From an uncultured virus (IMG/VR IMGVR_UViG_3300030433_003054) (lineage: Duplodnaviria > Heunggongvirae > Uroviricota > Caudoviricetes), in the IMG/VR virus record IMGVR_UViG_3300030433_003054: DNA of 64,000 bases. One strand, 5' to 3'. Position 1 is the stretch's first letter, and every line of letters begins with the position of its first letter. The notes beneath the pieces were generated by a model, which searched no databases, was not told the origin of the DNA, and worked only from the letters and a program-made list of their open reading frames with translations. This document shows, one piece after another, positions 7,429 through 62,656 of the stretch. The translations under genes were made by a program, and so were the position numbers.

Positions 7429-7530
7429 GGGTAGCTCCAATGAGATTTGACAAGGAGAGATTAATCTCTCCTGCATACCTTAAAGCATGGTTTACTACCT
7501 GTCAACACCTTTATGATTTTTTTTCATAAA
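7429..7530 (-). promoter_or_regulatory. Operator-promoter-hairpin-RBS cassette, copy 2
   Basis: TTTATGA-N7-TCATAAA (7510-7530), TTGACA-GGTAGTAAACCATGCTT-TAAGGT, hairpin AGGAGAGA-TTAA-TCTCTCCT, ATTGGAG. Confidence 0.8.
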
Positions 7531-9575
7531 GACTTTTCTTTACCCACTAATTCTAGCAAGCTCCAATCGGCTTTATCGGCTGCGCTTCCTGATTCCCAAC
7601 GTATTTTATCCACGTCAGAGAGCGATTTTTTCTTATCTCCACCTTTTCGAGAACCACCCAATGTCGTCTTGGTGGCAAAGTATGTAGGTCTTAATCCCTT
7701 ATCTTTCAGTGCCGCATACGTTGTTCCCTCTTCGGAGTCCAGCGAATAGGTGACAAATAGATTCTTCATCTTTGGGTCGCCTCTTCCTAGCAACGGCACG
7801 AGATCCATAACCCGACTAGTCAGCATAGATGATGCACCTAATATTGTTCCGTCTGATGCAACCCTAGTCAATTCCACAACATTATTAGGGTCTAATCCTT
7901 CTCTTGGATCTCTATCCCACCGTCCAGTAGGAGTATTGACCGTTGCAACGGCTCCAATCCTCCCATCTGTATCCATTACAGCAATTGCCATCATTAAACC
8001 CCTCATATTGATATTTGGGAGTGCTGAGTGGTGTTTCGCTATGTATTCCTGCGCAAAGCTCTTAGGCACGTTTGTGATAATATAGCGATCTTCTTTGCCA
8101 GCTAAAAATCTTCCTACTGCATCGACCAATAGTGCATATGTTTCGATGGGGAATCCATATTTTTCAGGTGGTTCCAGCACTTTGAATTTAGGATATGTTT
8201 TTTCTAGCTTATCAATACGTTTTTTGAGATGATCACACGATATGGTTTTACCCTGTTTCGAAGCCTCCCATCTTTTGCGACGACAATCTTTATACTCTTT
8301 TTTGAGTTGTACAAGCTCTTCATCTATCGGCTTAGTGATTTTTCGATATTCTTTTAATCTAAACTCTTCGTCTGTTTCTCTATCCTGTGTGATTTTATTT
8401 AATCGTTTGATGATACGTTCATATTTTTTCATCACACTCTTTTTAATTTCGGTGTACTTTTTAGTGGTCAGCTTGGCCCCCCCAGCTTGATCTGCTATTT
8501 TCCCCAATACAGCGATCTGTATAGCGATGCTTTCAACGTCAGAGAGATAAAACAGATGTTCATTGAGGAGGGTTAGCAATTTCCATCGTATTGTCAACGG
8601 CAATTTTGTACCGTCTGCTTTCTCCTTCGGTATATAAAATTCAGAGAGTACGAATTCTTTTGTGAATTGCGGATCAAGTTCCCGATCAATAAAAACTGAT
8701 TCATCTAAAATAGCGATGATCTCAGAGTAAGACGGTGTTCCGTACCCATACAGTGTATCCATATCGAAATTATCAAAGAGGAATAGACTATCGACAATTC
8801 TTTTTGCGGCTTTAAACGGGTCGTATTTAAAATCTCTCTTTCTGAGTTTTCGTCGTGCTTTTTTGCCGCCCGTCCCTTTTGTGGGATCATCACCTAATTT
8901 GCTAAATTGCTCAAACCGACTCAGACCACGTTCTTTTAGATTCTCCTCATCTCCAAATCTCTGAGAGAGAGCTTGTATCATCATTTTTTGTTCAGGATAT
9001 ATCGTCTTATCTTTCAATCGCTTGTAATACCTGATAAAAGGAGCCTTGTTTATGAGGAGCCAGTTTAAGGCTCCTCTATACGTTCCTTGACCTTTTGTCG
9101 TATCTCTCCATGATGGTTTTTGTTTACCGTCCTGATCTACTCCACGATCAGAATCTAAAAAATCATCTAGGTCAGAGATATCATGTACTTTTAAACCTGC
9201 CTCTTCCAATGCTTCTTTATAGAGCTTTGATCCGATGAAAAGAACATTTTTACCTTTTTTCCCCCATGTTTTTTTAAAGAGAGGGACTATATCGCTCAAT
9301 CGTACCTCATGCGAATCGATCTTTTTTTTAGAGTCAGGAACGATCACTTTATTGTATGGCTCAATTTCTTTTGTGATGGGTATAATACCATGTTTAGCTG
9401 ATACAACATAGGTAGGAAATGGGTCTTGTTCACCAGTTGAACGATACCATTGGCCGAAAATCTGACATAAACCATTAGTATATAAATCCCATACTTGGGT
9501 CTTATAATTTCTTTTATTCGCACCACACTGTATGAGGAGAGGATATTTGTATATACCGATTTTCATTTTTTCCAT
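7524..9575 (-). CDS. Multidomain protein: N-terminal DUF6884/YaaA-like domain and C-terminal XF1762/Mom-like GNAT domain
   Basis: N-terminus LIQCGANK..LYT..VVSAKHGII..IEPYN. C-terminus AQEYIAKHHS..VATVNTP..VELTRVA..SMLTS..VTYSLDSEEG..YAAL..K.RWE. Confidence 0.65.
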   Translation of the reverse strand: MEKMKIGIYKYPLLIQCGANKRNYKTQVWDLYTNGLCQIFGQWYRSTGEQDPFPTYVVSAKHGIIPITKEIEPYNKVIVPDSKKKIDSHEVRLSDIVPLFKKTWGKKGKNVLFIGSKLYKEALEEAGLKVHDISDLDDFLDSDRGVDQDGKQKPSWRDTTKGQGTYRGALNWLLINKAPFIRYYKRLKDKTIYPEQKMMIQALSQRFGDEENLKERGLSRFEQFSKLGDDPTKGTGGKKARRKLRKRDFKYDPFKAAKRIVDSLFLFDNFDMDTLYGYGTPSYSEIIAILDESVFIDRELDPQFTKEFVLSEFYIPKEKADGTKLPLTIRWKLLTLLNEHLFYLSDVESIAIQIAVLGKIADQAGGAKLTTKKYTEIKKSVMKKYERIIKRLNKITQDRETDEEFRLKEYRKITKPIDEELVQLKKEYKDCRRKRWEASKQGKTISCDHLKKRIDKLEKTYPKFKVLEPPEKYGFPIETYALLVDAVGRFLAGKEDRYIITNVPKSFAQEYIAKHHSALPNINMRGLMMAIAVMDTDGRIGAVATVNTPTGRWDRDPREGLDPNNVVELTRVASDGTILGASSMLTSRVMDLVPLLGRGDPKMKNLFVTYSLDSEEGTTYAALKDKGLRPTYFATKTTLGGSRKGGDKKKSLSDVDKIRWESGSAADKADWSLLELVGKEKSL

Positions 9576-10174
9576 TATTTCATTAGTTTTGTAACTAATA
9601 CATATCCCGATCCAATCACAGCGACACCTGCCGACATGAGGGCAATATTACGGGTCAATGGCTTTTTTTGATACATACCTACAAAAAGAGGAATCATAGG
9701 CAATACAAATCCTGATGCACCTTTAAGACCCTCCATAATCCCAGAGGAGAATATTTTTGATGCGGTGTAATATATACCGATGGAACCCAATGTACCTACT
9801 ATCGCTCCATATCCCTTCGGTTTGACCTTTTTAGCAAGCATTTTTTCTAGCGAATACCCAGCTACACTACCCACCAACATTAGGGAAGAGAGAAACAATC
9901 CTGTTTTAAATGCACTCCCTGAGTCCACAGAACCTAATACGTCAATACCCTTTTGATGTAATGATGGTGGCTTATTGTATCGACTCATGTAGGGCGCAAC
10001 GTCCATACGATGAGAATAATCCTGCCATTGCTCATTGTGCATATGGGATAGGTCTATATTTTGATTAACTAGTGGTGTTTTTTGATGTATGGGTCGGGCC
10101 TGTGGCTTAGATGCTGCATCTGCTTGGGCCACGTCGTCAGCTAAATAATCGACACTTTGATCAGGACTAAACAT
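9575..10174 (-). CDS. Multi-pass membrane protein
   Basis: About four hydrophobic segments in the C-terminal half. Confidence 0.7.
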   Translation of the reverse strand: MFSPDQSVDYLADDVAQADAASKPQARPIHQKTPLVNQNIDLSHMHNEQWQDYSHRMDVAPYMSRYNKPPSLHQKGIDVLGSVDSGSAFKTGLFLSSLMLVGSVAGYSLEKMLAKKVKPKGYGAIVGTLGSIGIYYTASKIFSSGIMEGLKGASGFVLPMIPLFVGMYQKKPLTRNIALMSAGVAVIGSGYVLVTKLMK

Positions 10175-11069
10175 TTTTTATTCTCCATTTGGTAAAGGCT
10201 TTATCTAAAACTTGTCTTAATTCTCTTTTATATGGCTGTTTATTTTTACCTAGCATTTCCCATGCTTCGTCTTGACTGACCCAATAAAGATCGTCGGTTT
10301 CCATCATCTCAATATCGTCGTCCTCAGACAACGGAGATACTAGATAAAATTTTTGCTTTGTACCAGCCAATGATACATCTGACACAAAATCGACTAATTT
10401 TGTATCAAATCCTGTTTCTTCTTTGATCTCTCTGTGTAGTGCTTCGTCTAGGGATTCTCCCCCCTCGACTGTACCACCGTAAAACTCCCAGCGAATACCC
10501 TTATAGCGATTTTTAGGTGCTCTGATCAGTACATACCCTTCATCGTCAATCATCACAGCTTGTACCGACAATTTATAGGGAGCAATGCGCTTCCTTCTGA
10601 TTCGTCTTTTCGGTATGGTATCTCTTGGATTTGGTTGCTTAGGACGTTCAATTTGCTTGACGGGTTGATGTATTGGGAGGATATCTAATGGGTTTCGATA
10701 TGTTCTCTGTTCGGTCGCCCCGTTTTGATATGAGTTTGGAACGTGTGAAGGTTCATCGTGATCATCTTCGGATTCGTACTCGTCCAATTCCTCATCATCT
10801 AGGTAATGGATTTGAGATTCTTCCTCCAATTCATCATAGGACTCTGAATATTCCTCTGACTCTTCCTGTGAATCCTCTTGTGAATTAGCGAATAAGTAGC
10901 CTAGTGAACTTGTTCTTCTAGGATTCTCAGTATGTATTTCCGCAACAGCACCACGTCTTTTCGCCTTGATATTGAATTGATCCCTGACCTTTTCAGCCTG
11001 AGCACGATCTTCGTATGCACCAATATCCCCGACTATTTTATTCCCACGTTTGAGTTTTATACGCAACAT
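10167..11069 (-). CDS. NUDIX hydrolase with long acidic/basic N-terminal extension
   Basis: Nudix box GGTVEGGESLDEALHREIKEETG. Confidence 0.85.
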   Translation of the reverse strand: MLRIKLKRGNKIVGDIGAYEDRAQAEKVRDQFNIKAKRRGAVAEIHTENPRRTSSLGYLFANSQEDSQEESEEYSESYDELEEESQIHYLDDEELDEYESEDDHDEPSHVPNSYQNGATEQRTYRNPLDILPIHQPVKQIERPKQPNPRDTIPKRRIRRKRIAPYKLSVQAVMIDDEGYVLIRAPKNRYKGIRWEFYGGTVEGGESLDEALHREIKEETGFDTKLVDFVSDVSLAGTKQKFYLVSPLSEDDDIEMMETDDLYWVSQDEAWEMLGKNKQPYKRELRQVLDKAFTKWRIKNV

Positions 11070-11705: not shown

Positions 11706-13925
11706 TCATTTTTTCCATGTTCGCTGTTTTTCTATTTTATTATATACTCTCTTTGGGAGCTTGTTAGCAAGATCATTGTCACTTGTGAAAAAGGTTTTAC
11801 CCCCGACAAGGAAGCTATTGACCCTTGCATATCCCCATGATTCAGGGGTTTGAGCAGGTCTGTGTCCACCACTAGCCCATGCACCCACACCACGATCAAA
11901 AACGTCTTTGAGCACCGATTCAGGGACTTTATCACCATAGTATTTTGATGCAGCTTTACTCTTGTCTTTCAAATCTCCATCGAATCCTCTTTTATGCGCT
12001 TCGACGGTATAAGGGGATTTGCGACTCTTTTTGTTTTGATCGGTGATAAACGGTCTATATAGCTGATCCATAACCTTTTGAGGGAATTTAGATTCGTCGC
12101 CATACTTTTCCAGAGCTTTATCATATTCGATTCGTCGACTCTCAATCTCTTTAATCCGTTTTTCAAGCTCTTTGCCTTCGTACCCTGACAAATATTTCTG
12201 AGGAATTTTTAGGCCCCTTTTATCTCTGACAACAGGATTCTTTTTGCAATACGCACAATGCTTTTTAATGATACCGCCAGCCATGCGCTCTTTTCCGCCT
12301 CCGTTGGGGAGTGGGTGATCGCTGTAATTGTCACCATACCGATGTATTACAATAGACCGACCTTCGATCTCAGAGAGCTTTAAACGTGGTGCATATAGTG
12401 TCTGATTTGACTCTCCATAATCGTCAGCAAAGATTCTAGGCAAATCCCCCTTGTGTCCGTTACCTGTGGGGGAACCATGATAACCAGCATTATCGGGATC
12501 ATAGTGCGAACCAGCACTCCCACCTGATATCCACTTGTCACCCTTTTTAGAGGGTGACAGATCCCCATACTCATGGATATGCGTACCATGATAGCCTTGT
12601 GGCAATTGAGATAGTGATGTATCTATTCTTAGGCCCTGATTGGTATCTGTCAGTATAACGTGACCAATCTTTTCATGGATACCCTGTGACGATAAAAAAT
12701 GAATCGGTACGGTCAGGCTTTTAGTAGGATTACTTTTAGGACTCTGTTCTAATTTATAGATGTTCAATATCTCAGACGGAAAATCTTTAACTGTTGATAA
12801 ATATTCTATCTTCTGTTCCTCGTCGGGTAGCCATTCCAATTCTTCGATATCCTCTTCGGATAGATATTGAGCAATATCTATGAGAGGAATTGTATTATCG
12901 TGTTCGCTCAGACCCACCTCTTCCACACGTTCAATAAAATCATCATTTTCTGAATCTTCGTACTCTTCTACGATTTTTTTAATAGCTCCATACCGATGGG
13001 AGCCTGTTAGCAAATTTCCTTCACCTAGACTTAAAAGTGGTCTACCGACCCAACCATTTTGTAATAACGATTTGATGATGGACTTTAATTTACTTGTATC
13101 ATCTACCTGATGAGGAGGTTCCATCATAACTATATCATGCGACGATACAAATTCCGCATCTTCATTGTACGATGGATTCGCAGCGAATAGTTGTAATTGA
13201 GTAGTCAGGGAACGCATGATATCTCTTCTCTTTTTTACCAATGCAAATCCACGTCGTGTCGGTTTCACCTCCCATATGGTGACACCTGAGATGCCATGAG
13301 GACGGGTTTTGACCACTTGGAGATACTTAGCTTTGATTGCTTTGGTAATCCCGTCACTTTTAGGTCTTTGTTCTGACCCAATCACGACTGTGGGTTCCTT
13401 GTCCTCCCTATCTCTGACCGCAAAAACCACCTCTTGAACCATATCTTCATCTAGGTCTGTAAGATACGGATCTTTGGGTGTAAAATCGAAGGATAATTGA
13501 GTGGGTGGATTCGATACATATCTTTTCCATTCCAGTGACGATAAAGGAGCTTGGGTATCCAGCCATTTCTTTAATCGTTTCGGGGACGGAGAATAGGCCC
13601 ATGCAATTAAACCTAAATGCCGACGGGTAGGTTCTCCCTTCGGAGTCCACCCCGTTGAATATGTATCATTGGCCCTCATCTGTTCTAGGTGACGTGCAAT
13701 AAATTGGTTACGTCGATCTGACCACGTTTCGTGATTGTTTCGTCCAGTAAGACGTTTTTTCATTTTCGATATCGATCCATTGGAGGCTATATAAGCCTCC
13801 ACAAATCCTTCTTTGGTCTGTTTCGAAGGCTGTACACCTCTTGCAACCTCAGATACATGATATCGATCCATTGCAGGAACAGAACGTAAAACATCATTGA
13901 GAGAGAGCCAATTGTATCTCATCAT
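11706..13925 (-). CDS. Five-module polyprotein including ParB-like, Cu/Zn superoxide dismutase and DUF5824-like domains
   Basis: PTRRHLGLIAWAYSP module; LLTGSHRY (ParB-like); SOD ligands HGTHIH, GSHYDP, YHG, GHKGDL, VIH, ERM; RGVGAWASGGHRP..SWGYARVNSF (DUF5824-like). Confidence 0.8.
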   Translation of the reverse strand: MMRYNWLSLNDVLRSVPAMDRYHVSEVARGVQPSKQTKEGFVEAYIASNGSISKMKKRLTGRNNHETWSDRRNQFIARHLEQMRANDTYSTGWTPKGEPTRRHLGLIAWAYSPSPKRLKKWLDTQAPLSSLEWKRYVSNPPTQLSFDFTPKDPYLTDLDEDMVQEVVFAVRDREDKEPTVVIGSEQRPKSDGITKAIKAKYLQVVKTRPHGISGVTIWEVKPTRRGFALVKKRRDIMRSLTTQLQLFAANPSYNEDAEFVSSHDIVMMEPPHQVDDTSKLKSIIKSLLQNGWVGRPLLSLGEGNLLTGSHRYGAIKKIVEEYEDSENDDFIERVEEVGLSEHDNTIPLIDIAQYLSEEDIEELEWLPDEEQKIEYLSTVKDFPSEILNIYKLEQSPKSNPTKSLTVPIHFLSSQGIHEKIGHVILTDTNQGLRIDTSLSQLPQGYHGTHIHEYGDLSPSKKGDKWISGGSAGSHYDPDNAGYHGSPTGNGHKGDLPRIFADDYGESNQTLYAPRLKLSEIEGRSIVIHRYGDNYSDHPLPNGGGKERMAGGIIKKHCAYCKKNPVVRDKRGLKIPQKYLSGYEGKELEKRIKEIESRRIEYDKALEKYGDESKFPQKVMDQLYRPFITDQNKKSRKSPYTVEAHKRGFDGDLKDKSKAASKYYGDKVPESVLKDVFDRGVGAWASGGHRPAQTPESWGYARVNSFLVGGKTFFTSDNDLANKLPKRVYNKIEKQRTWKK

Positions 13926-16276: not shown

Positions 16277-17248
16277 TTAGTCCTCTTGCATCGCTTGTAC
16301 CAATAAGCCATAAGCAACAGCATTATATGGATCTCTTGCTTGTCGGATCTCTGATATCTCAAATGGCAACCGCTTGGAGGATACCACGTTTTTAAAAAAT
16401 TCAAGGAAATTGCCAGCTTTTGAGGTTCCACCCGATACGACAATTGGGATTGGTTTGGAGAACACCATTTGCAATTTATTCTTCTGAAATTGCTTTGTCA
16501 CCATAGATAAAGAGTATTCGATAAGCTCTTTATAGTAAAAGCTCAAAGCCTCCTCTATTCGGTTTTGAGGGGCCAATAGATCAATACCCTGTTCCTTCGT
16601 CAAGCATACCGAAGCTTGACTCTGACCAGTCGCCATCGAAGCTCCTTGATCTATCCAGTCACCACCACGTTCAACAGAAAAAGCCATGCACTCAATAGAC
16701 AAATTCGCCAATGCGATATTTGTCATTCCTGAACCAAAAGAAAATGCAATGCCCGTAAAATTCTCTCTTGAACACTCAGAAAAGATTATTGCCATCGCTT
16801 CATTCGATGGAATTGCCTTGTATCCTATATCTGACACAATGCGCTCAAATAGCCTTTTATGATAAATGGTATCCCTAGATGGATTGTCAATGGGTGCTGA
16901 GGGAATTGAGAAATAGCATGGTTCGTTGGGCTGTGGATCGCCTAGAATACTTTTTATCATGTATGCAAGAACGTCCACCGCTCCTATCTCATTGGGAGAT
17001 ACCAACCCTTTTGATAGGGGCCGTCTGACCTCACGACCGAACATGTTTGCCATCTCTAATGCCGCATCAGAGAGAATCAAAATCTCATCATCTGTTTCGA
17101 CAAAATCCGCACCACTCAATTTCAGTAGCTTTTTAGAGGATTTGGGGAGGGAGAGAAACGCATCACGAATTCTTGACGTGACTGTTTTTGACCCCTCCTT
17201 TTTTGCCATAACAATATTCATGGTTCCTATATCTAGCCCTTTTGCCAT
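16277..17248 (-). CDS. Actin-like ATPase (MreB/MamK/ParM superfamily)
   Basis: Phosphate-1 GLDIGTMNI, RRPLSKG, NEAMA, phosphate-2-like FSFGSGMTN, adenosine motif VVSGGTS, AVAYG. Confidence 0.85.
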   Translation of the reverse strand: MAKGLDIGTMNIVMAKKEGSKTVTSRIRDAFLSLPKSSKKLLKLSGADFVETDDEILILSDAALEMANMFGREVRRPLSKGLVSPNEIGAVDVLAYMIKSILGDPQPNEPCYFSIPSAPIDNPSRDTIYHKRLFERIVSDIGYKAIPSNEAMAIIFSECSRENFTGIAFSFGSGMTNIALANLSIECMAFSVERGGDWIDQGASMATGQSQASVCLTKEQGIDLLAPQNRIEEALSFYYKELIEYSLSMVTKQFQKNKLQMVFSKPIPIVVSGGTSKAGNFLEFFKNVVSSKRLPFEISEIRQARDPYNAVAYGLLVQAMQED

Positions 17249-46327: not shown

Positions 46328-47232
46328 AACAAAAATGCTGCTGCTGCTAATACACTCATCAATAATGGGAGCTTTGATTTTGGGGGGTTTTTAAAGCGAT
46401 CTAATACCGATGTGGGAGGCAATACAATCCCTGCATCGGTAGGGGGAGGCAATGTAACGTCTGTCAATACAGCTTGTGGTACACTGGGATCAATACCCCT
46501 CATGCGGTCACAAATCGCCTTAATATTCAGGTCTATTATTGTCAGAGCATAATAATAACCAACCTGATAAGATGTACTCCTAAAAACCGTCAAGGAGGCT
46601 ACCGAATTAGGCCCCATTGTACTAACTACGGTTTTTCTTATTTTCCGCAATTCAGTCAGTCGTGATGTAAGCTCATTAGATGGCATTTGATCCACCACTT
46701 GACGGATACCACTATATTCGTCAACGGCTCCACTTATCACAGCAATTTTTTCAACGACTCTTGGATCAGCTACACCATTGGCTATATCCTGCTCTAATTG
46801 GTCGAGATATACCCCATATCCCTTCGTACTGACACTGTGTAACAGGCCCCATATCTGTGACCCCAATGCACCACCACCACTTAACGACACCACGATATAT
46901 CCTGCCTGCCATACAATCTCTGACCACTCAAATATCGTTTCCCATGTATCGTATTGTTTCTGCGCATCATCTTTTATGCGCTGGACGTGCTCTGTGTATT
47001 TGACCAATAGATTTTCTCCGATCGCTGGACTGGGATATTCTATTGCTATGCTACATTTTACAGACACCATCGAATCAAAAATCTCTTGTGCTGTTTGAGG
47101 GGATAGATCGACGGATACTGGTTTGTCCGTCAATTGTGGGCCACCTGACTCTTTTTGTGGCACTTGGGTCACTACACTGATTGGCCCTTTTCGCTGGGCT
47201 GTGAAGGATATTTGTTTATTGTACTGTGCCAT
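46324..47232 (-). CDS. Hypothetical protein with C-terminal membrane anchor
   Basis: Ends LPLLMSVLAAAAFLL. Confidence 0.7.
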   Translation of the reverse strand: MAQYNKQISFTAQRKGPISVVTQVPQKESGGPQLTDKPVSVDLSPQTAQEIFDSMVSVKCSIAIEYPSPAIGENLLVKYTEHVQRIKDDAQKQYDTWETIFEWSEIVWQAGYIVVSLSGGGALGSQIWGLLHSVSTKGYGVYLDQLEQDIANGVADPRVVEKIAVISGAVDEYSGIRQVVDQMPSNELTSRLTELRKIRKTVVSTMGPNSVASLTVFRSTSYQVGYYYALTIIDLNIKAICDRMRGIDPSVPQAVLTDVTLPPPTDAGIVLPPTSVLDRFKNPPKSKLPLLMSVLAAAAFLL

Positions 47233-50200
47233 TATTTCTCCAATAGCGATTCTTTGTGTATTTTATCATACAAACGTGTTGCTACGTCGTATTTTAAGCC
47301 TAGTTTTGATAGACCAAAATATTCTCTGATCTTTGTGTTCAACAGACGATAAAAATCCCCATGATGAGGCTTTAAAGAGATATCAGCATCAGATTTGACG
47401 AGCGATATATTTTGCATCAATCTATCGTCCAATTCTCCAAATATCTTCTTCTTCTCTAAAAGGCTCTTCATCTGTTTAAAGCCCTCTAAATTGGGAGCAA
47501 ATGGAACAAGGTCTACCGCTATCCCCTTTTTTGTGATTGACTTTTTGCGTTCCCCAAATTTAAAGAAATATGGATCATTGGGAGAGATGTTGCCCTGCCA
47601 TTGGATCTGAATACCCATTGCATCATAAAAATCCTGATGATTCGACTGTTTTTGTAACAATTTCCTGATTAGGCTGTTCATTCCTCTCATATGGCCCTGT
47701 GTTATCATCGTATTCCCAAATAATTCTCTTACCTTCTTTGTATTCGCTGCTTTAAAAGCATCACTTAGGCTTACTCCAAATGTACCTCCCCATTCAGTGA
47801 AAGCTCCATATATTATCTGTTGCTGGATATAGGGAATACCTGTTTTTCTCAATGCTGTTAAAAAGTCACCCGATAGATCATAATGAACTTTGGGTTTTTT
47901 TATCTCAAACTGAGTCAGCTTGTATCCATCATCTGTTATCGTAATTCTTTTCTTAGTCCATACAGGCATACTTTCAGTCACCACGACTACTTTATTGCTC
48001 TTTTTATCATGTATAAGCATTGGGAAGAATTGTTTCTTCTTTGCTCCTGCACCTGTTTCTGAAACAGTTAGCCCATGAGCGATAGCATTGGTGTGAAAAG
48101 CCTGCATCTTCATTTTATTGGTCAAGGATACAAACATCGTAAAATTTAAATTGGCTAGTATGGCATTTGTCGCCCGCTCTACTTGTACAGAATCGGGGCT
48201 TAATATCTTCGCATACCCATTTTTGAGGAGCCAATTGTAATAATTTTGCTTCTGTTTTCGGATATCCTTCGGCTTATCTCCTTCCTGTATGAGATAGGCT
48301 TTCAAGAGGGGTAGTGCCTCATCTCCAAAATCAAGTTTTATATCGTTTTGATAGAGAATTACATTATCCCGACCTTCGAATCTTTTAGAAGGAAATGCAA
48401 GTGCTAATCCACTAAATAGCTTTTTATCATCTTCGGCTGACTGAGTATCAGGTTCTTTAAAAATCACGTTTTCAAGCTCTGAGATTCCCTGAGTAAATGA
48501 TTCAGGGAACCCATTATGCGAATCCACGATTCGGATAGCACTCAATTCGTACCCTTCTTGTCTGACAAAAAGGTGTACACTCCTACCTAAGATGTAAAAC
48601 ATACCCTCAATTAAGGTAAAATCTCTCATATATGGTTTGTTATACATAAAAGCTCTACTGTACTGGATAGCATCAACATAATACAGAGGAGGATATACTT
48701 GGGGTGACAAGCTCTTTAAATATCGGAGCGAACTTTGAGCACGTTGCATGAGGTTCGTATCCTTATCTCTTGTCGCCTGATAAAACATCAAGGAGGTTTT
48801 GTTTATCTGACCTGCGATCTTCTCTCTTTTCTTTCTAGCAAGTTTTTCGTTGCGTTTTTTGCGTAGTATTTCTCTTTTTCTCTCAAAGTCAGCCTGATTG
48901 ACCGAAGCCAATAAAAGGAGTGTATCAGCACTGGTTTCAGTGGCCCCTACGTTGTTCACAATACGGTCTTGACTTTCAATAGCCGATACAAGCCAATTCC
49001 TTTTGCCTTGTATCGTTAAAAACATGTATTGGTCGGCTGAGTTTTTAATGAGATAGTAATAGATACCAACCGATCCATATTGGTTCCCTGAGCGAATACC
49101 ACGTCCGTTTCTCTGTGTGATGGTGGCTGGCTCCCATGCTAGATCGACGTGATGTATAGCGCATGTTCTGTGCTGCAAGTCGATACCCTCATACGCAACA
49201 GAGTTAGCTATGATGATATCATAGCGGTATCCGTTTATTTCCCTTGCTCCCGCTGTTTTAGCTGGGACGACCTGATTCTTCTTATTGAGATAGAATTTAG
49301 AGGGGAAATTAAAGTTTTTCGATACCGTTTGTCGTGATTGAGGGTCAGGCAACACCTGTGCGTTCATAATACCGATAGAATACTCAGGTACACCCGATTC
49401 TATCAACAGCCGTCTTATCATGTACTGGACGGCTATGTTTTGAATAAAGATGATGTTTCCACATGTTAAATCGCCTTCTTTGTACTTTGTATCACCTCTA
49501 ATCGAAACAATGGTTTTAATAAGGCTATCCAATTTAGAAGAGTGAAGATCGTCCTCTGAGAGCTTATCGACCGTTTTTCTTATCTGGTCAACACTCATCT
49601 TTTTGCGTTTCTTTACCTTCTTTTCGTCTGTTTCAACACCTTTATTATTATCGTCCTCATCGACTACATAGAATAGATCACGTCTTTCATAGATGATGGG
49701 ATTAATACAAATCATCAACATGTACATGATCCCTTCTAGTGGATTCATTTTCTCATCATCATCATCGGGTAATTGCATCTTCTCCTGAATCTCTTCTATC
49801 AGTGCTTTTTGAAGAGAAGAGGGGTTGATATCTATTTTGTGCTCCACTGGTTCGGGGACTTGCATTGAGTTAGCAAGCTCAGGATATTTCTTTACGACCG
49901 TTTCAAGCACCTCAAAATTAGCATAACGGTTCAAAATCTCTCTGAATTCGTCAAGGTTTTTGAACTGCTTTACCTGTGGATACTCTTGCACTTGGAGCGA
50001 AGCCGAATAAAAACTATCCTCTTCGATTGTCAGGAACCGATTGTAAAAATCGGTGCTTGACCTCAGACCGTACTGTTTAAAGATATTGGGATCAACATAT
50101 TGGAGGAGATTGTAAAATTCAATGGGACTATTTTTTGCTGGTGTGGCACTCAATAAAAATATATTGTTTCCACCATATCGTTGTTGCGCATATTCACGCA

Positions 50201-53200
50201 CCAATTCGCATCGAATATCGAGATTGTATGATGCTTTTGAGGGTTTGCCTACTCCTAAAAATTTTGGTGGGGAGTTAAAGTCAGTTTTAGGGACGAATAG
50301 ATTTTTAAAGTTTTGAGCTTCATCGACCAATAACAGGTCAACCCCGATACTCTCCCACGTCACACCCTTATCGAATTTCCTTGTCGATTTGGGAGGCATA
50401 AGCATATCTGAGATCATTGCATCTAGCGCATCTTTTTTAGCTCTTAATTCCTGTGTGCTTTTCCCTGCTCTTACTTTGTCAGCTATTTGTTTATAGATAT
50501 TGTGTTCGGCTGAGATATGTTTGTCAGCAAATTTTTTGTACGAACGTTCGGTGAATTGAGTTTTATCGAACATGGAATAAGTACACAAAGCTACATCATA
50601 AGCTCCTAATGAAAACTGCAACCATTTTCGGCCCCGATCTTCTGAGCTATCGGTTTTTGATCTTAGAATCCCGTCTGAATCTCTATACTGATTCGCTCCA
50701 ATGGTTACGACCCTCCACGACGGAATTACGTTTGCGATATCGTCTTTCCATTTAAAGAGGATTGAGTTTGGTACTAGAATAACGGGCCTCTGACACCACC
50801 CCTGCTGTTTGGCAATGGCTATCGTTGCAATACCCGTAGCGGTCTTTCCTAGACCTACATCGAAGGCTAGTAAGCCCTCTCTCATATACACCATTTTTCG
50901 GACGGCTTCGGCCTGATATGGACGCAATTTAAAGCCCGCCCAACCATTGACCACAATATCCTCTCCTAATGAAAAATCAGGCTCAATGTATCCTCTGAAT
51001 TGACGATTGTATGCATTGGTTATGAGTTCCCAATATTTCCTGTTTTGATCCGATGAGATAAAATTCAGAAAGTCATTTACCATCTGCTCTCTTAATCTCA
51101 ATTTGGCCCCATAAGTGCTTTCTGCCTTATACTCTTTCAAAGAGTTTACATCTCCCTTCCTGAACGTTGGATTAAAGATTTTGCCATTATTGTTGAGCAT
51201 ACCATACAGAACAGATTGGTACGGAGTCAGTAGGCCCGCAAATCCATCGTGCGGCTGTAATTCTGAATCGGGTATTGTCACCCATTGTTCTAGGATTTTG
51301 TCTTTATATTTGGGATCACCCGATTTTCTAGGTGGTTTACCCTTCAAATATGGCACTTTGCCACCAAATTCCTCTATTGTTTTCCTGAGTCCTCTGTCTC
51401 CTGCGGTATCTTTTCCGTATCCAATGATACCCCAACCATCTACATCATCTGCCGATTCTAATGTTTTCTTAACAAATGTATTAAAAACCTTGTTGTTTCT
51501 TAATGTAGGGTAGTATTTTCTAATTTTATCCTGAGAGGAGATATAGTATTCTTTCATCAAATGATCTAATATATCATCATTAAAGCTAAATCCCATATCC
51601 GCCCACTTGATAGCTCTTGAAGAAAGCCTCTTGCCCTTGAATATTGGGTCTTTACTTATACCCTTCCATGATGGAGTACCTTTTCGTTTTCGTGCATATC
51701 CTATTGCATCTTTAAAAGAAAGGATTAGATCACCTAATCGCACCTGAATAGCATAAGATTCACCTTTTCGTACAATTCGTGAGTCCATGAGGGGCTTTAT
51801 TTGGTCAGAGTATTTTATCCCTTTAATATATAGACCTTCATAAAAAGAATTTAGAAGCTCAATGGGTACAAAACTGCTTGACGGGAGTATCTTTTGCTCT
51901 TCCACCAAATCTCCGAAGGAAGCTAGATTCATCAATGTTTGACCCTTCTCATTGGGCTGTGTTAGCCGATCCAATTGAGCTTCATAAATGGAGTGAATCT
52001 GTTTGAGTTTCGGATTCGATGGCTTTTTACTCTTTTTCATATACTGAGAAAGAGCATCATATTTTTTCCACAAATCCCCCTCATAATAGCGCATTGAGGG
52101 TACGCATGAATAAACATCATGCTTCGCTGAGGGAGATAAACACCAACCCTTCGATGCAAGCTCTACGGCGATATCTATAAACGGTTTGTTCACTGCACCA
52201 GCCGTCTTTAAGGCGGCTTGTGCGCTTGCTTCGGTGATCTGAGGGAATTGTGTGTACTTTTGTCGATGATTGTACCATGCACCGAAAAGGAGCGGGATAT
52301 TATTTGGGTCGCCATCAAAAACGAATTGCATATCAATGGGTTTCGATACCTGACTGACAACATTTCCCGAATCGGTATATACCGATACAAACTGTTGATA
52401 GCTAGTAATATCCTCTTTTTTCAGGTCAGAGAGTTGTTTGTTTTTGTGTGGGTTCCCATATTTTTCTTTATAGGATTCCAATTTGGTTATTAGGCCCTCC
52501 CGTTCAGAAAATGCTGCTAGTCGTGACTTAGAGGTATCCAATTGAAGAGATTTTATGAATTTACGAATATCAGGAACCAGATGATATGCTGCCTGTGAAG
52601 CCTGAGTCATTTTTGCTAGGACGGACGGACTTAGAACCTTTTCTGTATAGATAAAATGTTCGGCTTCTTTCTTTTTCTTTTCGGTCGTCTTGCCGTCTTT
52701 GCGTATGATGGCAAAATCTTTGTCTTTTGCCTGATATATCGGTCGATATTCTATTGGGGGTAGGCCCTCAAATTCTCCATTATGGACGATCCAATCAAAA
52801 ACAGAGGAGTTTTTATAGGTTTTGTCTTTACTTGTTCGAAGGGTTTGATTCTGTTTTATGAGTTGGCCCAGCACCTTTTCGGGGTGTCGTGTGAAAAAAT
52901 CACCATCTAAAATATATTGATCTTCCTGTGGAACCTCTTTAAGCACTCCTCCCCTAGCCTGCATAAAAATCACGTCGATAGGAGTCGCAACATGGAAGAC
53001 TCCCGATTTGAGCTTACCTCCGACTATGGTTTTTGTGGGGAGGGTATAAGCATCTATGATATGAGCTTGCTTTAAGATCTCCTCTCTTATTTCCTTGTGC
53101 TTTGTGTCTTTTTGCCTCATTGTGGCTCTTGGGATCACCATCACACACACACCACCTTTATTGAGCATGGGGAGGCTTCGGACGATCTGATAATGTTCGG

Positions 53201-53897
53201 CCCGTTTATAGTCCACCCAATTAGGGTCTAATCTCTGTGTGTCTGTATTCCTTGTCATGTACGGAGGATTAGCAATGATAGCTGAATAGATCGCAACAGG
53301 GTCTTGTGATCTAGCAAACTCCTCAAACATCATCTGATGGGTATTTACAGTCGGATATAGTGCCATGAGAATCTTAGATGATTGGTGCGATGGTTCCACT
53401 GCGTTCCATGTAAATCCCTCCTGATAAAATGGGTCAATGAATCGCCCAATACCTGCTGAGGGTTCCAGCATTAAATATTCTTTCTTGTACTTAGGCACGT
53501 TCAACAGCTTGCTGACTTTGCCATGAATAATAGGGTGTATGGCTTTATGAATAGAATAAGTCAGGGTATAGGGTGTGTAGTATTCGTTCGTTATCGCATT
53601 TTCAGTGGCGATATACTGATCATCTGCTATTTGACGATTCCATTTACCAACATCATCGAATCCACCCCAGCCAGTGTATTTTTTAAGCTCTTCACGTTCT
53701 TTGTCTGTGATGTTTGCGCCAGTCTTTGTCGATAAGATAGAGATGGCTTTTAGGTTCGCATTTCCCCTCTGTGTAAGAGTCGTGGGGAGCTTGGGGATAG
53801 ACTGAACCTGTGTATGCACCTTCGCTTTGCCTTCCTTCTTTAAGGAGGCAAAGCGCATCGACAGTGCTTCGATTATTGTACGTTCTCTCTTGTTCAT
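47232..53897 (-). CDS. DarB-like giant protein: N6-adenine methyltransferase plus SNF2-type helicase (2221 aa)
   Basis: AN..AI..L..YTGWGG, NEYYTP, LEPSAGIGRF, NPPY; helicase AFDVGLGKT, VDEAQNFKNL, SATP..NSP.E, EGIDLQ, W.P..QRNGRGIRSGN. Confidence 0.85.
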   Translation of the reverse strand: MNKRERTIIEALSMRFASLKKEGKAKVHTQVQSIPKLPTTLTQRGNANLKAISILSTKTGANITDKEREELKKYTGWGGFDDVGKWNRQIADDQYIATENAITNEYYTPYTLTYSIHKAIHPIIHGKVSKLLNVPKYKKEYLMLEPSAGIGRFIDPFYQEGFTWNAVEPSHQSSKILMALYPTVNTHQMMFEEFARSQDPVAIYSAIIANPPYMTRNTDTQRLDPNWVDYKRAEHYQIVRSLPMLNKGGVCVMVIPRATMRQKDTKHKEIREEILKQAHIIDAYTLPTKTIVGGKLKSGVFHVATPIDVIFMQARGGVLKEVPQEDQYILDGDFFTRHPEKVLGQLIKQNQTLRTSKDKTYKNSSVFDWIVHNGEFEGLPPIEYRPIYQAKDKDFAIIRKDGKTTEKKKKEAEHFIYTEKVLSPSVLAKMTQASQAAYHLVPDIRKFIKSLQLDTSKSRLAAFSEREGLITKLESYKEKYGNPHKNKQLSDLKKEDITSYQQFVSVYTDSGNVVSQVSKPIDMQFVFDGDPNNIPLLFGAWYNHRQKYTQFPQITEASAQAALKTAGAVNKPFIDIAVELASKGWCLSPSAKHDVYSCVPSMRYYEGDLWKKYDALSQYMKKSKKPSNPKLKQIHSIYEAQLDRLTQPNEKGQTLMNLASFGDLVEEQKILPSSSFVPIELLNSFYEGLYIKGIKYSDQIKPLMDSRIVRKGESYAIQVRLGDLILSFKDAIGYARKRKGTPSWKGISKDPIFKGKRLSSRAIKWADMGFSFNDDILDHLMKEYYISSQDKIRKYYPTLRNNKVFNTFVKKTLESADDVDGWGIIGYGKDTAGDRGLRKTIEEFGGKVPYLKGKPPRKSGDPKYKDKILEQWVTIPDSELQPHDGFAGLLTPYQSVLYGMLNNNGKIFNPTFRKGDVNSLKEYKAESTYGAKLRLREQMVNDFLNFISSDQNRKYWELITNAYNRQFRGYIEPDFSLGEDIVVNGWAGFKLRPYQAEAVRKMVYMREGLLAFDVGLGKTATGIATIAIAKQQGWCQRPVILVPNSILFKWKDDIANVIPSWRVVTIGANQYRDSDGILRSKTDSSEDRGRKWLQFSLGAYDVALCTYSMFDKTQFTERSYKKFADKHISAEHNIYKQIADKVRAGKSTQELRAKKDALDAMISDMLMPPKSTRKFDKGVTWESIGVDLLLVDEAQNFKNLFVPKTDFNSPPKFLGVGKPSKASYNLDIRCELVREYAQQRYGGNNIFLLSATPAKNSPIEFYNLLQYVDPNIFKQYGLRSSTDFYNRFLTIEEDSFYSASLQVQEYPQVKQFKNLDEFREILNRYANFEVLETVVKKYPELANSMQVPEPVEHKIDINPSSLQKALIEEIQEKMQLPDDDDEKMNPLEGIMYMLMICINPIIYERRDLFYVVDEDDNNKGVETDEKKVKKRKKMSVDQIRKTVDKLSEDDLHSSKLDSLIKTIVSIRGDTKYKEGDLTCGNIIFIQNIAVQYMIRRLLIESGVPEYSIGIMNAQVLPDPQSRQTVSKNFNFPSKFYLNKKNQVVPAKTAGAREINGYRYDIIIANSVAYEGIDLQHRTCAIHHVDLAWEPATITQRNGRGIRSGNQYGSVGIYYYLIKNSADQYMFLTIQGKRNWLVSAIESQDRIVNNVGATETSADTLLLLASVNQADFERKREILRKKRNEKLARKKREKIAGQINKTSLMFYQATRDKDTNLMQRAQSSLRYLKSLSPQVYPPLYYVDAIQYSRAFMYNKPYMRDFTLIEGMFYILGRSVHLFVRQEGYELSAIRIVDSHNGFPESFTQGISELENVIFKEPDTQSAEDDKKLFSGLALAFPSKRFEGRDNVILYQNDIKLDFGDEALPLLKAYLIQEGDKPKDIRKQKQNYYNWLLKNGYAKILSPDSVQVERATNAILANLNFTMFVSLTNKMKMQAFHTNAIAHGLTVSETGAGAKKKQFFPMLIHDKKSNKVVVVTESMPVWTKKRITITDDGYKLTQFEIKKPKVHYDLSGDFLTALRKTGIPYIQQQIIYGAFTEWGGTFGVSLSDAFKAANTKKVRELFGNTMITQGHMRGMNSLIRKLLQKQSNHQDFYDAMGIQIQWQGNISPNDPYFFKFGERKKSITKKGIAVDLVPFAPNLEGFKQMKSLLEKKKIFGELDDRLMQNISLVKSDADISLKPHHGDFYRLLNTKIREYFGLSKLGLKYDVATRLYDKIHKESLLEK

Positions 53898-55873
53898 GGG
53901 ATATCCTTATCCTTATCTATTTCTTTGAGTTTGGCCCAAATCATATTGTTTAGATCTTCTTCGTCGCCACCTCTCAGGGTAAATGCGCTCTTGTTCTGCA
54001 CTAAAACATGTTCTTTACCATCATTAGCAAGCTGTAAATGAGCCTGAAACGATAGCCAATCAACAACATCATATTTATGGCCGATCCAGCTAGTTGAACG
54101 TTTATTTTTAGGTACAACAGTCACCAATTGAACGATAGAGTTATCAGCCAATTCTTCATGTTTATCCAAAATTTGACCTAATTTTATTCTTTTATCTACT
54201 GTTGTCGGATATTTGGATCGTTCATTTTCTGTTATGAGCACCATAATTACATTTCGATCAAAAATATCTTGCTCAATAGGGTATACAGACCAGTTTTTCA
54301 ATCTTTTCTTAGCGGTAGCCTTCGTTTTCTTCTTTTTCGATTCAGATAGGAGCTTCACTATATCGTCGGATATGTAAGGTTTAAGACTTTCTTGGAATCC
54401 AGCTAGGTATTGTTTCGCTTCTTCTAGGGGAACGTATATGTATTCTCTTTCCAATTTTGGGGTTGCTTTACCCTTTGACATATTTAAGTTAATGAAACCA
54501 GTTTGTGATGTTGCGATTTTATACCCAGCCTTTTTAAGATCACCTTGAATAGTTGCTTTTAGTAGTTGGGAACTATCCAATATGCGTTTCAATTTAACCT
54601 TACTAGGTATTCTTCCTGAGATGTAAGTCAGCATTAGAAAGAATATCCCGATAGGAGATTCATAGACAAATGCTATTTTTGTTGGCATTTTTTCTAGGCT
54701 TTGTACAAACTCATCGAGATTAGATATCTTTTCCTTTTTAAGGGTCAGATCATATCCCGCCTTATCTTTACTAGTCACAAAAGACGTTTTATAGACGGTC
54801 AGCTTTCCTTCCTTCGATGTAGTTTTTACCTTCGATCTAGTTTCTTTCTGTGGGGGTTTTTTATAATCCACACCTGAGTTAAAAGGTATTGTACCCCCTC
54901 CCCGATCGAACAGATCATAAAGTATTACACTACCTATTGTTGTAAATACATTTCGGAATAAGAATAGATTCTTGGCCCATGATTTGTCTGATTTTTCTGC
55001 CTCTAAGCTCATATCCCAGCCAAATAATGATTTAAGGGGATTCTCCATTTGAATCTCTAAAATCACGTTCAAGTACGTTTTGAGAGAGTCTTTAAAAGGG
55101 ACTAGGTATCTATCTTTCACCTCTTTTTTGTACTTTTTATGCTCAGGGTCTATAACAACCCGATCTATGAGATTCAAATCCGACGGCAACACCTTCGACA
55201 TGGCGAATTTATTATCTTTTTTCTTCATAACATCAGCTATTTTGAGCCTAAATAATTCAAGGAGAAAGTCTAATTGCAAAGATACTGATTCCATTTCTCT
55301 TGTGTGTGTTATGCGCTGCTTTACCGCATAGTTTTCTTTAAGGTCACTCCAAAAAGTTTTCTCTCTGAACACCATTTCGTACATCTGCACTCTGTACCAC
55401 GTCTGAGTAGTTTTATTGTATAAGACAGGTGCGTACTGTCTAGCCTCATAAATATAGATTGGTTTTTTTGTGTAATCTGTATATTTCCCATCTTTATATC
55501 GCATCTCCCATGAAAGAGGTCTTGAATCCTCTTTCATCGGAGAGTAATGAGTTTTTGCCATTGGTATAAGTCTAGGAAAATGTGTATTGTCAGGGTATTT
55601 TGCGTGAAGGAAGGCTCCCACCTGCTTCCCTATATCCTGAGAAAAAATAAGGATTTTACGGCCCTTCCTCAGAGCCAATGTGTACAATCCTAATCCCATA
55701 AGCTCATACCCACCATCTTCTAGTAAATCCACGATATCAAAATCCTCAAACAGAGGTAGGCCCTTCATATCCTGCACAAAGTCGTTGAATTCTAGTTCTA
55801 TGGTATCGCTATCTATCTCATCGAATCTAGCTTTGAGAGCTATTACAATGGTCTTTTCTTTGTCGTTCAGCAT
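53894..55873 (-). CDS. Large hypothetical protein with N-terminal shared tag
   Basis: Likely start MLNDKEKTIVIALKARF, with a TGATG overlap with the upstream stop. Confidence 0.75.
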   Translation of the reverse strand: MLNDKEKTIVIALKARFDEIDSDTIELEFNDFVQDMKGLPLFEDFDIVDLLEDGGYELMGLGLYTLALRKGRKILIFSQDIGKQVGAFLHAKYPDNTHFPRLIPMAKTHYSPMKEDSRPLSWEMRYKDGKYTDYTKKPIYIYEARQYAPVLYNKTTQTWYRVQMYEMVFREKTFWSDLKENYAVKQRITHTREMESVSLQLDFLLELFRLKIADVMKKKDNKFAMSKVLPSDLNLIDRVVIDPEHKKYKKEVKDRYLVPFKDSLKTYLNVILEIQMENPLKSLFGWDMSLEAEKSDKSWAKNLFLFRNVFTTIGSVILYDLFDRGGGTIPFNSGVDYKKPPQKETRSKVKTTSKEGKLTVYKTSFVTSKDKAGYDLTLKKEKISNLDEFVQSLEKMPTKIAFVYESPIGIFFLMLTYISGRIPSKVKLKRILDSSQLLKATIQGDLKKAGYKIATSQTGFINLNMSKGKATPKLEREYIYVPLEEAKQYLAGFQESLKPYISDDIVKLLSESKKKKTKATAKKRLKNWSVYPIEQDIFDRNVIMVLITENERSKYPTTVDKRIKLGQILDKHEELADNSIVQLVTVVPKNKRSTSWIGHKYDVVDWLSFQAHLQLANDGKEHVLVQNKSAFTLRGGDEEDLNNMIWAKLKEIDKDKDIP

Positions 55874-62583: not shown

Positions 62584-62599
62584 AATTTTGCCTAGAAAT

Positions 62600-62629
62600 A
62601 AAAGAGGGGAGGGAGATAACCCCCTCCCC
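62600..62629 (-). terminator. Rho-independent terminator
   Basis: GGGGAGGG stem followed by TCTTTT on the minus strand. Confidence 0.6.
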
Positions 62630-62656
62630 AAACACAAAGGAGATCTGAGTATGTGT

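Follow-up and report, generated by a model that had tools for sequence, protein, structure and literature searches.

Asn-Pro dipeptides mark the junctions of exchangeable modules in a mosaic polyprotein of a marine phage-like element and are candidate processing sites

Autocleavage at an Asn-Pro bond is known for the export-gate protein FlhB, as well as for YscU/EscU and for mu1 (N42-P43), a virion protein of reovirus. In retroviral Gag, one precursor is cut by the viral protease, and mature products start with proline (PMC8621278). The nearest described class for the protein examined here is that of the polyvalent proteins of phages and conjugative elements, for which delivery together with the DNA and release of the domains by proteolysis have been proposed, the processing being ascribed to embedded peptidase domains (Iyer, Burroughs, Anand, de Souza and Aravind 2017; PMC5512222). 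The phage P1 proteins DarA and DdrB are treated there as head-packaged anti-host proteins that undergo proteolytic processing (PMC5512222). Here we analysed one gene in a stretch of 64,000 nucleotides from an uncultured virus (IMG/VR IMGVR_UViG_3300030433_003054; this whole stretch is called the window below), which we refer to as a temperate marine phage-like element. Its product is a protein of 739 amino acids (aa) in which an asparagine-proline (NP) dipeptide stands at each of four junctions between five modules, among them a Cu/Zn superoxide dismutase (SOD) and a module containing the domain DUF5824 (Table 1).

Our analyses indicate that the dipeptide is kept at the junctions of a family in which the modules themselves are exchanged. 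The explanation we favor is site-specific cleavage between Asn and Pro, by whatever mechanism, which would release the modules; we put its probability at about 0.55.

Asn-Pro dipeptides and module exchange

By script count the protein contains exactly four NP dipeptides, N139 (YVSNP), N250 (FAANP), N399 (PKSNP) and N563 (CKKNP), in agreement with the number and positions given in a preliminary description of this DNA. With 28 Asn and 42 Pro, 1.6 would be expected from composition, and four or more occurred in 6.9% of 5000 shuffles (P=0.07). The count alone is weak evidence and unremarkable; the placement is the non-random part. Domain boundaries from Pfam, alignments to Protein Data Bank (PDB) chains, AlphaFold2 (AF2), VIA-align and ESM-Atlas place each of the four in one of the short gaps, a few residues long, that separate the folded units, and none inside a unit, the position that the preliminary description had counted against its own proposal. 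The full-length AF2 model is poor overall, with a mean predicted local distance difference test score (pLDDT) of 60.5, and three of its segments with pLDDT below 50 (124-148, 241-294 and 392-401) hold NP139, NP250 and NP399, respectively. Around NP563, which follows the final SOD strand and precedes the opening helix of module 5, pLDDT is about 61, and residue 564 is the exact start of several HMMER alignments from unrelated architectures. An identical protein of 738 aa (P0002) is present in a public collection.

Relatives were collected with a word-indexed search, which returned 30 proteins, and with an exhaustive search, which returned 4655 proteins at E<=0.001, mostly plain SodC; the best 150 of the 4655 were examined. 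The test set consisted of the 87 non-identical proteins, among 172, with a match to module 1, 2, 3 or 5 at E<=1e-5, and P0002 was left out of it. Scans of viral contigs with the protein and with an alignment (A1) found no relative. Judged by their sequences, the 87 relatives form a mosaic family, in which modules are inserted, deleted and permuted as cassettes that begin with Pro and end with Asn. Module 3 is missing in P0005-P0013, where SOD directly follows the NP that ends module 2, while P0004 and P0009 carry an extra module of 226-228 aa that is itself bounded by NP on both sides. In P0015-P0019 SOD stands right behind module 1, and the DUF5824 module is split and permuted. The order in P0016 is module 1, DUF5824, SOD, and its sequence stops after ...CPHCRKK, one residue short of the Asn of NP, and in P0020 and P0031 an NP lies immediately upstream of module 1. 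N399, P400, N563 and P564 do not vary among 14 co-linear sequences, for which mean column identity is 47%. The question raised in the preliminary description, whether homologs keep NP at the junctions while modules shuffle, thus received a clearly positive answer.

Breakpoints were defined as positions where homology in an all-versus-all BLAST comparison ends while both proteins continue for at least 30 residues. This gave 372 clustered breakpoints, each supported at least twice, in 84 proteins, and all 400 dipeptides were compared at them. NP ranked first on both measures: it was found within 6 aa at 127 of the 372 breakpoints (within 2 aa at 77), and 128 of 238 NPs (54%) lay no more than 6 aa from a breakpoint, versus approximately 11% of all sequence. 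The runners-up were YY (32 of 73), which reflects an insertion point within DUF5824, and then NN, SN, KN and RN, which overlap xNP. These figures bear on the main rival explanation, a tentative but possible one, in which NP is a delimiter that stays uncut in a protein built like beads on a string. In that case NP would break secondary structure and insulate the folds, or be read by a non-proteolytic partner such as a prolyl isomerase or a machine for loading or unfolding. The generic linker dipeptides PK, SK and KK were near breakpoints in only 17-18% of cases as against the 54% of NP, and many sequences could break structure, yet N and P are invariant while their flanks vary. An uncut delimiter would on the other hand suit linkers that are short and of low predicted confidence, and phage N4 virion RNA polymerase, ArdC and TraC1, which are treated together with the polyvalent proteins, are reported to be packaged or transferred unprocessed or at full length (PMC5512222).

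When the 87 proteins were cut computationally between N and P, 325 fragments resulted, 290 of them 35 aa or longer. Of the fragment pairs that matched in BLAST, 1661 aligned along at least 75% of both fragments, counted as end to end, and 2830 only in part. Single-linkage grouping of the fragments yielded families that are narrow in length, namely a module 1 family (41 members, median 134 aa), a DUF5824 family (40 members, median 179 aa), an SOD family (23 members, median 164 aa, range 139-167) and further families of 9, 8, 8 and 7 members. NP joins 45 different pairs of families across 107 junctions, and module 1 leads via NP to at least nine different families. Profiles of ten module families then located 246 module ends with at least 25 residues beyond. 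NP was present within 8 residues of 200 of these ends and at 9-16 residues from another 15, and 21 had [KR]N followed by another residue; for comparison, 180 of 1740 random positions had NP within 8 residues.

The surroundings of the dipeptide were also informative. R or K stands at position -2 in 106 of 223 distinct NP contexts, K, S, R or N predominate at -1, and the residues after P are weakly basic. The residue following [KR][KR]N is P in 51 cases, Q in 14, R in 11, E in 9 and G in 9. Module 1 of high-GC relatives ends in RRN and then G, A, E, Q, N or P, and some relatives read KNRS or RRNRS before DUF5824. Since basic-basic-Asn is usually kept where P is absent ([KR]N at 21 of the 46 module ends without NP within 8 aa), Asn would be the key residue. 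The basic residues and Asn thus appear to be the more constant element, with Pro as the strongly preferred follower in the marine low-GC clade.

These contexts bear on self-cleavage, in which the Asn side chain would attack its own carbonyl to give a succinimide, either as in the Asn peptide lyases or slowly and spontaneously in the particle. We consider it a rather improbable mechanism, and the likelihood we grant it is a share of that given above to cleavage by any mechanism. Self-cleavage would explain why a protease gene is missing. The known Asn lyases need a specific fold, whereas here the folds differ per junction and the sites lie in low-confidence linkers. Asn-Pro chemistry would also be of no use to those relatives in which G, R, A, E or Q comes after RRN at these junctions, and the purely chemical lability of Asn-Pro bonds raised in the preliminary description fits poorly with these basic-basic-Asn sequences. 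Asn-Pro cannot deamidate by the usual route, and spontaneous cleavage at Asn-Pro in peptides takes weeks to months. Also considered and rejected were 2A-like skipping (the sites read NPPT, NPSY, NPTK and NPVV, with NPGP at none of the four), a sortase-B-like sorting signal of the NPKSS type (NPxKS occurs before SOD, and the other junctions do not fit the pattern) and N-P helix capping (a beta-strand or extended peptide follows several sites).

For five genes with DNA available, the junction codons were AATCCA (10), AATCCT (5), AATCCG (3) and AACCCA (2). The codons vary, and therefore selection would act on the protein. A scar of, or aid to, module exchange at the DNA level, in which a short junction sequence AAYCCN supports in-frame recombination and has no function in the protein, is accordingly very improbable in our estimate. 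Modules are clearly exchanged as cassettes at NP points, as such a scar would have it. The shared sequence is however just five to six bases, the third positions (CCA/CCT/CCG, AAT/AAC) and neighboring codons vary in the five genes, and the dipeptide persists where the flanking modules are only about 40-60% identical. What is left after cleavage, an uncut delimiter and a DNA-level scar we assign to something else.

Natural protein ends provided a further view of the cassettes. P0033 begins M-KNIRVAIH where fused forms read NP-KKSIVVPIH, and P0045 begins M-RRRNRKTRLVP where fused forms read NP-RRRRNGTRLVP. P0054 stops right after RQIRLF, where polyproteins go on with x(1-4)-NP, and an open reading frame (ORF) of 83 aa at a related locus (L003, 10045-10296) is a free-standing copy of a module that is joined in P0049 to DUF5824 via ...SQTRSNP. 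These natural ends match cassette ends and show the modules to be autonomous, with the unit starting at the Pro position; that modules seem to work alone argues against a delimiter that stays uncut. In the gene string of the polyprotein itself, a 683-aa protein has an N-terminal DUF6884 and a C-terminal XF1762-family part, the latter matching the C-terminal module of P0026-P0030 and P0133 (tblastn, 40-49% identity, E 1e-40 to 1e-46), so that fusion and fission have occurred inside the same gene string. The Nudix protein encoded nearby (10167-11069, minus strand; L003 8523-9440, L005 8497-9489) has an N-terminal domain of approximately 49 aa, an acidic spacer and the Nudix domain. It keeps NP at two places in three lineages ([KE]NP then x..LG[LY]LF; Y[RK]NP then LD[IL]LPI), and a third NP is KP in L005. 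From this conservation, use of NP may extend beyond the polyprotein.

The five modules

The modules listed in the preliminary description proved correct and could be refined, with module 1 now assigned as a homolog of the R596 'ORFan' domain and module 2 as a winged helix; the ParB-like call for module 3 holds only at the level of a lead. Module 1 was folded alone with 40 sequences and gave an AF2 model with pLDDT 92.2 and a predicted template modeling (TM) score of 0.89, confident to about residue 137 and with confidence falling after 140. By this predicted fold it is a clear structural homolog of the C-terminal 'ORFan' domain of the mimivirus sulfhydryl oxidase R596. VIA-align matched it to residues 172-286 of 3td7_A with Z 13.7 and a root-mean-square deviation of 2.3 Å over 108 aligned residues at 23% identity, the next row having Z 3.4, and Foldseek against BFVD returned uncharacterized giant-virus proteins with TM 0.77 and 0.72. 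In 2012 the R596 domain was reported to be a new fold for which no homologs could be detected, a role in localization or substrate binding was proposed for it, and its authors suggested that R596-type enzymes are perhaps localized to virus factories or virions (PMC3509050). The fold is widespread in bacterial-virus mosaic proteins, where module 1 is the constant part that carries variable cargo and probably serves in localization or loading. A role of module 1 as a protease is unsupported: it is a small helical domain, and its sole clear structural relative is a non-catalytic accessory domain.

For module 2, VIA-align gave Z 7-8.4 to MarR/PadR chains over residues 141/147-249, which is the middling range for that tool, and ESM-Atlas gave TM 0.56-0.70 over 140-250, again with a winged helix. 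Module 3 had no Pfam match up to E=10, ParB_N (PF02195) included, over residues 251-399. ESM-Atlas linked it to a ParB_N cluster with a feature score of 0.91, and TM to models of ParB_N clusters was 0.49-0.60 over 251/254-396/399, all under the bar of the tool; in the full-length AF2 model its pLDDT is only 30-77. In module 5, DUF5824 was found at 621-717 (Pfam E 4e-16 / 2.6e-17).

In module 4, Pfam placed Sod_Cu (PF00080) at 421-553 (94.1 bits versus a cut-off of 28.9, E 1.2e-26, profile positions 3-133 of 133). Solved bacterial SodC chains align from 402/406 to 554 (1eso_A, E 1.3e-35), and VIA-align placed the SOD at 397/399-556, with the Megavirus SOD 4u4i as the best structural match (Z 14.7). 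A residue alignment with 1eso_A shows identity at the H-x-H, GxHxDP, H...GHxGD, H-x-x-GDN and GGG-x-R positions, which hold the metal-binding His and Asp residues and the active-site Arg. Both cysteines of 1eso_A (E. coli SodC), which we take to form the conserved intrasubunit disulfide of Cu/Zn SOD, are replaced (C to L, C to G). On this alignment, module 4 would be an SOD variant without the canonical disulfide in which the aligned metal ligands and the Arg are kept. We speculate that an SOD of this kind would suit a reducing compartment and that the CxxC behind it could serve copper handling.

Module 2 is framed, in flexible segments, by two peptides resembling beta-clamp-binding motifs, for which the consensus is QL[SD]LF / QLxLxL. 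The frame reads Q-L-x-[LF]-x-F just past NP139 and Q-x-x-L-F 6-7 residues before NP250, and QLSLF, QLDLF and QLNLF stand in relatives at the place of the second peptide. Such clamp-binding-like peptides were seen in P0003-P0013, P0021, P0027, P0109, P0119, P0130 and P0171, and the 87 proteins hold 24 matches to Q[LIMV].[LM]F, at fixed offsets from NP, versus 0.8 in shuffles. A predicted complex of residues 139-151 with two copies of Escherichia coli DnaN scored 0.71, versus 0.07 for the best of three controls; the 0.71 mark was reached by 116 of 157 solved complexes and by 2 of 215 mismatched pairs. The runs agreed in at least 67% of contacts with partner pLDDT of at least 80, and the predicted contacts, in the peptide pocket of the clamp, are DnaN residues 152, 172-177, 240-247, 344-346 and 362-366. 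This predicted docking is to be read as a likeness, as similar clamp-peptide complexes have been solved and E. coli DnaN is a stand-in that may differ from the host clamp.

Table 1. Positions in the window of the polyprotein gene, its junctions, modules and short motifs, and of two further genes
Feature	Position	Strand	Remarks
Whole gene	11706..13925	-	P0001, five-module mosaic protein, 739 aa
Module 1, residues 1-139, compact helical domain ending YVSN	13509..13925	-	R596 'ORFan' homolog (predicted fold)
Junction 1, N139-P140 (AAT-CCA)	13506..13511	-	model confidence drops right past residue 140
QLSFDF, residues 143-148, 4 residues after N139 (clamp-binding-like)	13482..13499	-	motif statistics, fixed offset
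Module 2, residues 140-250, winged helix-turn-helix (MarR/PadR-like)	13176..13508	-	pLDDT 77-91 over 150-240
QLQLF, residues 243-247, starts 7 residues before N250 (clamp-binding-like)	13185..13199	-	6 residues in most relatives
Junction 2, N250-P251 (AAT-CCA)	13173..13178	-	SOD directly after NP in relatives without module 3
Module 3, residues 251-399, ParB N-terminal-like domain, lead level only	12729..13175	-	ESM-Atlas
Junction 3, N399-P400 (AAT-CCT)	12726..12731	-	invariant, 14/14 aligned sequences
Module 4, residues 400-563, Cu/Zn SOD + CxxC	12237..12728	-	Pfam Sod_Cu
CxxC (C557-C560), 3 residues before N563	12246..12257	-	both Cys invariant in alignment
Junction 4, N563-P564 (AAT-CCT)	12234..12239	-	invariant, 14/14 aligned sequences
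Module 5, residues 564-739, DUF5824-containing helical module	11709..12236	-	Pfam
683-aa protein, same gene string	7524..9575	-	C-terminal part = module fused to module 1 in high-GC relatives
SprT-like minimal zincin (HEVAH), 130 aa	23046..23438	-	only protease-like gene recognized in window, candidate only

Proposed processing at the junctions and the genomic setting

We propose that the product of the gene is a cargo-type polyprotein made of five autonomous modules in a row, each of which would be a cassette with Pro at its start and Asn at its end. N-P, usually with K/R at -2 and K/S/R/N at -1, would be the processing site, and a cut after Asn would leave each module with Pro as its first and Asn as its last residue. 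Because the upstream and downstream folds differ at every junction, a short linear signal that is recognized in trans is a better fit than a fold-dependent reaction. The invariant dipeptide, the variable exposed linkers, the basic residues before it, the 45 kinds of junction and the natural ends argue for the P1-P1' specificity of a processing enzyme, that is, for recognition of the residues on the two sides of the cut. A dedicated endopeptidase with Asn at P1 would be likelier than self-cleavage. Its gene might lie elsewhere in the element, it might be the HExxH module embedded in many relatives, or the host might supply it. We infer the cut itself, its scissile position, the enzyme and the stage of the life cycle at which cutting would take place.

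The search for a protease covered 36 ORFs of the window with PHROGs, 64 with Pfam and 21 with NCBIfam and returned only weak SprT-like/DUF2201_N matches, in a protein of 130 aa. Its gene adjoins the integrase and has orthologs at three related loci (L003, L005 and L007), with a conserved C-terminal tail IYYD..DIQT...PRPS; a link of this SprT-like zincin to the NP junctions is unsupported. Many relatives have an HExxH module, recognized by eye, inside the polyprotein, NP-bounded at 9 of 10 N-side and 5 of 8 C-side ends. The HExxH modules had no Pfam peptidase match at E<=0.001 in the ten relatives scanned, and tblastn with 86 relatives found no homolog of them in the window. A profile-profile comparison of HExxH modules and SprT-like proteins (E 0.043, probability 1.2%) aligned them only around HExxH and was counted as no evidence. 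The proposal in the preliminary description that NP is a cleavage site was thus upheld as far as the conservation of the junction dipeptide through shuffling is concerned, while the step to a protease or to self-cleavage stays conjectural, with no protease identified in the window.

The outcome of the protease search weighs against processing and is what an uncut delimiter would lead one to expect, and further results fall on the same side. For the peptide next to NP139 (N139-F148), clamp binding is predicted within the uncut protein, which would make cutting needless for that function. Across all ORFs of the window NP occurs 59 times versus 36 expected, and from this mild excess the junction signal may in part be a general compositional habit of the element. 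NP is lacking within 6 aa at 245 of the 372 breakpoints, many of which seem to come from alignments that end inside a module, from insertions or from truncated gene calls. Intramodule NPs are present in relatives, namely DNPLP in an SOD loop, GNPT in module 1 and KNPN in module 2, and 10 of the 246 module ends have neither NP nor [KR]N nearby. The count at module ends is partly circular, as the profiles were built from NP-cut fragments, and the breakpoint test is the independent one. The sequences also share ancestry, so that NP counts are not independent events, and the variety of NP neighbors is a better argument than the counts.

The polyprotein gene lies within a run of same-strand, overlapping genes that encode an actin-fold protein, a cement-like protein, an SGNH hydrolase, an amidase, the polyprotein, a 178-aa membrane-anchored protein, the Nudix protein, a membrane protein and the 683-aa protein. 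The rest of the window holds an integrase, RusA, DnaJ, a lysozyme, methyltransferases and a DUF3987 primase, and amidases are also present in the window. No capsid, portal, terminase or prohead-protease family was recognized among its ORFs with PHROGs and Pfam. The role in virion maturation that the preliminary description had suggested is therefore conjectural, and packaging of the polyprotein in a particle is an assumption. The context was compared at six metagenome loci and four genome loci, with the high-GC loci L008 and L010 left out. The same gene set was found in other lineages at L003, L005 and L007, the last on a contig of an alphaproteobacterial metagenome-assembled genome (MAG), which hints at possible hosts.

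Several side observations were made at L007 and in the window. At L007 the polyprotein has a different module behind module 1, and an SOD that by eye is of the Fe/Mn type is encoded as a separate gene on the same MAG contig (7991-8614, minus strand). The actin-fold gene of the window (16277-17248, minus strand) encodes a 323-aa protein that matches Pfam 'Volactin' over its full length (E 2.7e-75), with a DIGT phosphate-loop-like start and a faint MreB-like match, an actin-like gene in a phage-like element. Two giant proteins are encoded on the minus strand, a DarB-like one of 2221 aa with an Eco57I-type methylase and an SNF2 helicase (47232-53897; 7 NP versus 4.7 expected) and a DdrB-like ParB one of 1398 aa (55873-60069; 4 NP versus 3.0 expected), neither with a clear excess of NP. 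Two tandem paralogs of 439 and 445 aa (60071-61390 and 61390-62727, minus strand) share an NPNPIKLS motif close to the start and resemble each other at the C-terminal end; they matched no family.

In a wider form of our proposal, which we regard as doubtful, Asn-Pro would be the universal cassette delimiter of a large undescribed family of bacterial-virus polyproteins. A novel Asn-specific processing activity would recognize it, whether an endopeptidase of a new kind that accepts Pro at P1' or a context-free Asn-lyase chemistry. A phage-delivered precursor would then fall apart into exchangeable effectors, among them a clamp-targeted DNA binder, a ParB-like enzyme and a disulfide-free SOD, and the R596-ORFan-like module 1, common to giant viruses, would be a shared loading handle.

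What appears to be new here is a very simple two-residue delimiter for the presumed processing of polyproteins or polyvalent proteins. If NP is cut, it would constitute a two-residue processing code for multi-enzyme precursors in bacterial viruses, with the unusual specificity of Asn at P1 and Pro at P1'. Such a code could be used to annotate the mosaic proteins of marine phages, which are very large and for the most part lack annotation, would help to find the responsible protease and could serve as a laboratory tool for separating proteins from one frame. Even if it is not cut, NP is a practical rule for splitting such proteins into true modules, and it has already given a bacterial-virus home for the R596 'ORFan' fold, the winged helix framed by clamp-binding-like peptides and the SOD variant without the canonical disulfide.

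Comparison with known systems

No report of the NP junction rule, of DUF5824 or of SOD-bearing phage polyproteins was found in the open-access literature searched. The 2A 'StopGo' peptides separate the proteins of one reading frame at ...NPG/P and need NPGP and a eukaryotic ribosome. They have an NP-containing signal in common with the junctions described here, all four of which lack NPGP. Retroviral Gag belongs to eukaryotic RNA viruses and is cut by an aspartic protease within the polyprotein; the proposed products with N-terminal Pro would be alike, but the P1 residue of the Gag sites with Pro at P1' is hydrophobic and not Asn.

The Asn peptide lyases (FlhB/YscU, NPTH; reovirus mu1, N42-P43) share with our protein the Asn-Pro pair, with Asn at P1 and Pro at P1' in their maturation cleavage. 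They have a single autocatalytic site inside one conserved fold, whereas here four sites lie in variable linkers between unrelated folds, and Pfam scans and structure comparisons of the modules found no sequence or fold similarity to a self-cleaving fold of the FlhB/YscU or mu1 type. R596 and the Megavirus SOD match module 1 and the SOD module in fold, with the Z scores given above, and in R596 the 'ORFan' domain is likewise attached to a redox enzyme. Both are single enzymes of eukaryotic viruses and not NP-delimited polyproteins.

Phage P1 DarA and DdrB have no NP rule described in the parts of the literature drawn on here, and for the present protein packaging is an assumption. For the polyvalent proteins, the sections of PMC5512222 used here name no junction motif and no SOD, which sets our protein apart. 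The hallmark PolyVal domains (MPTase-PolyVal, ART-PolyVal, LPD, DdrB-ParB) were not found by Pfam in P0001, which had only Sod_Cu and DUF5824, and ten relatives scanned had only Sod_Cu, DUF5824 and one GNAT, so that neither an ART family nor a PolyVal peptidase was named in them; it was only by eye that HExxH and ART-like stretches were noticed in relatives. The likeness to the polyvalent proteins lies in the combination of several unrelated domains, here five folds, in one polypeptide of a mobile element with mosaic architectures, and in the presence of the DarB-like and DdrB-ParB giants in the same window.

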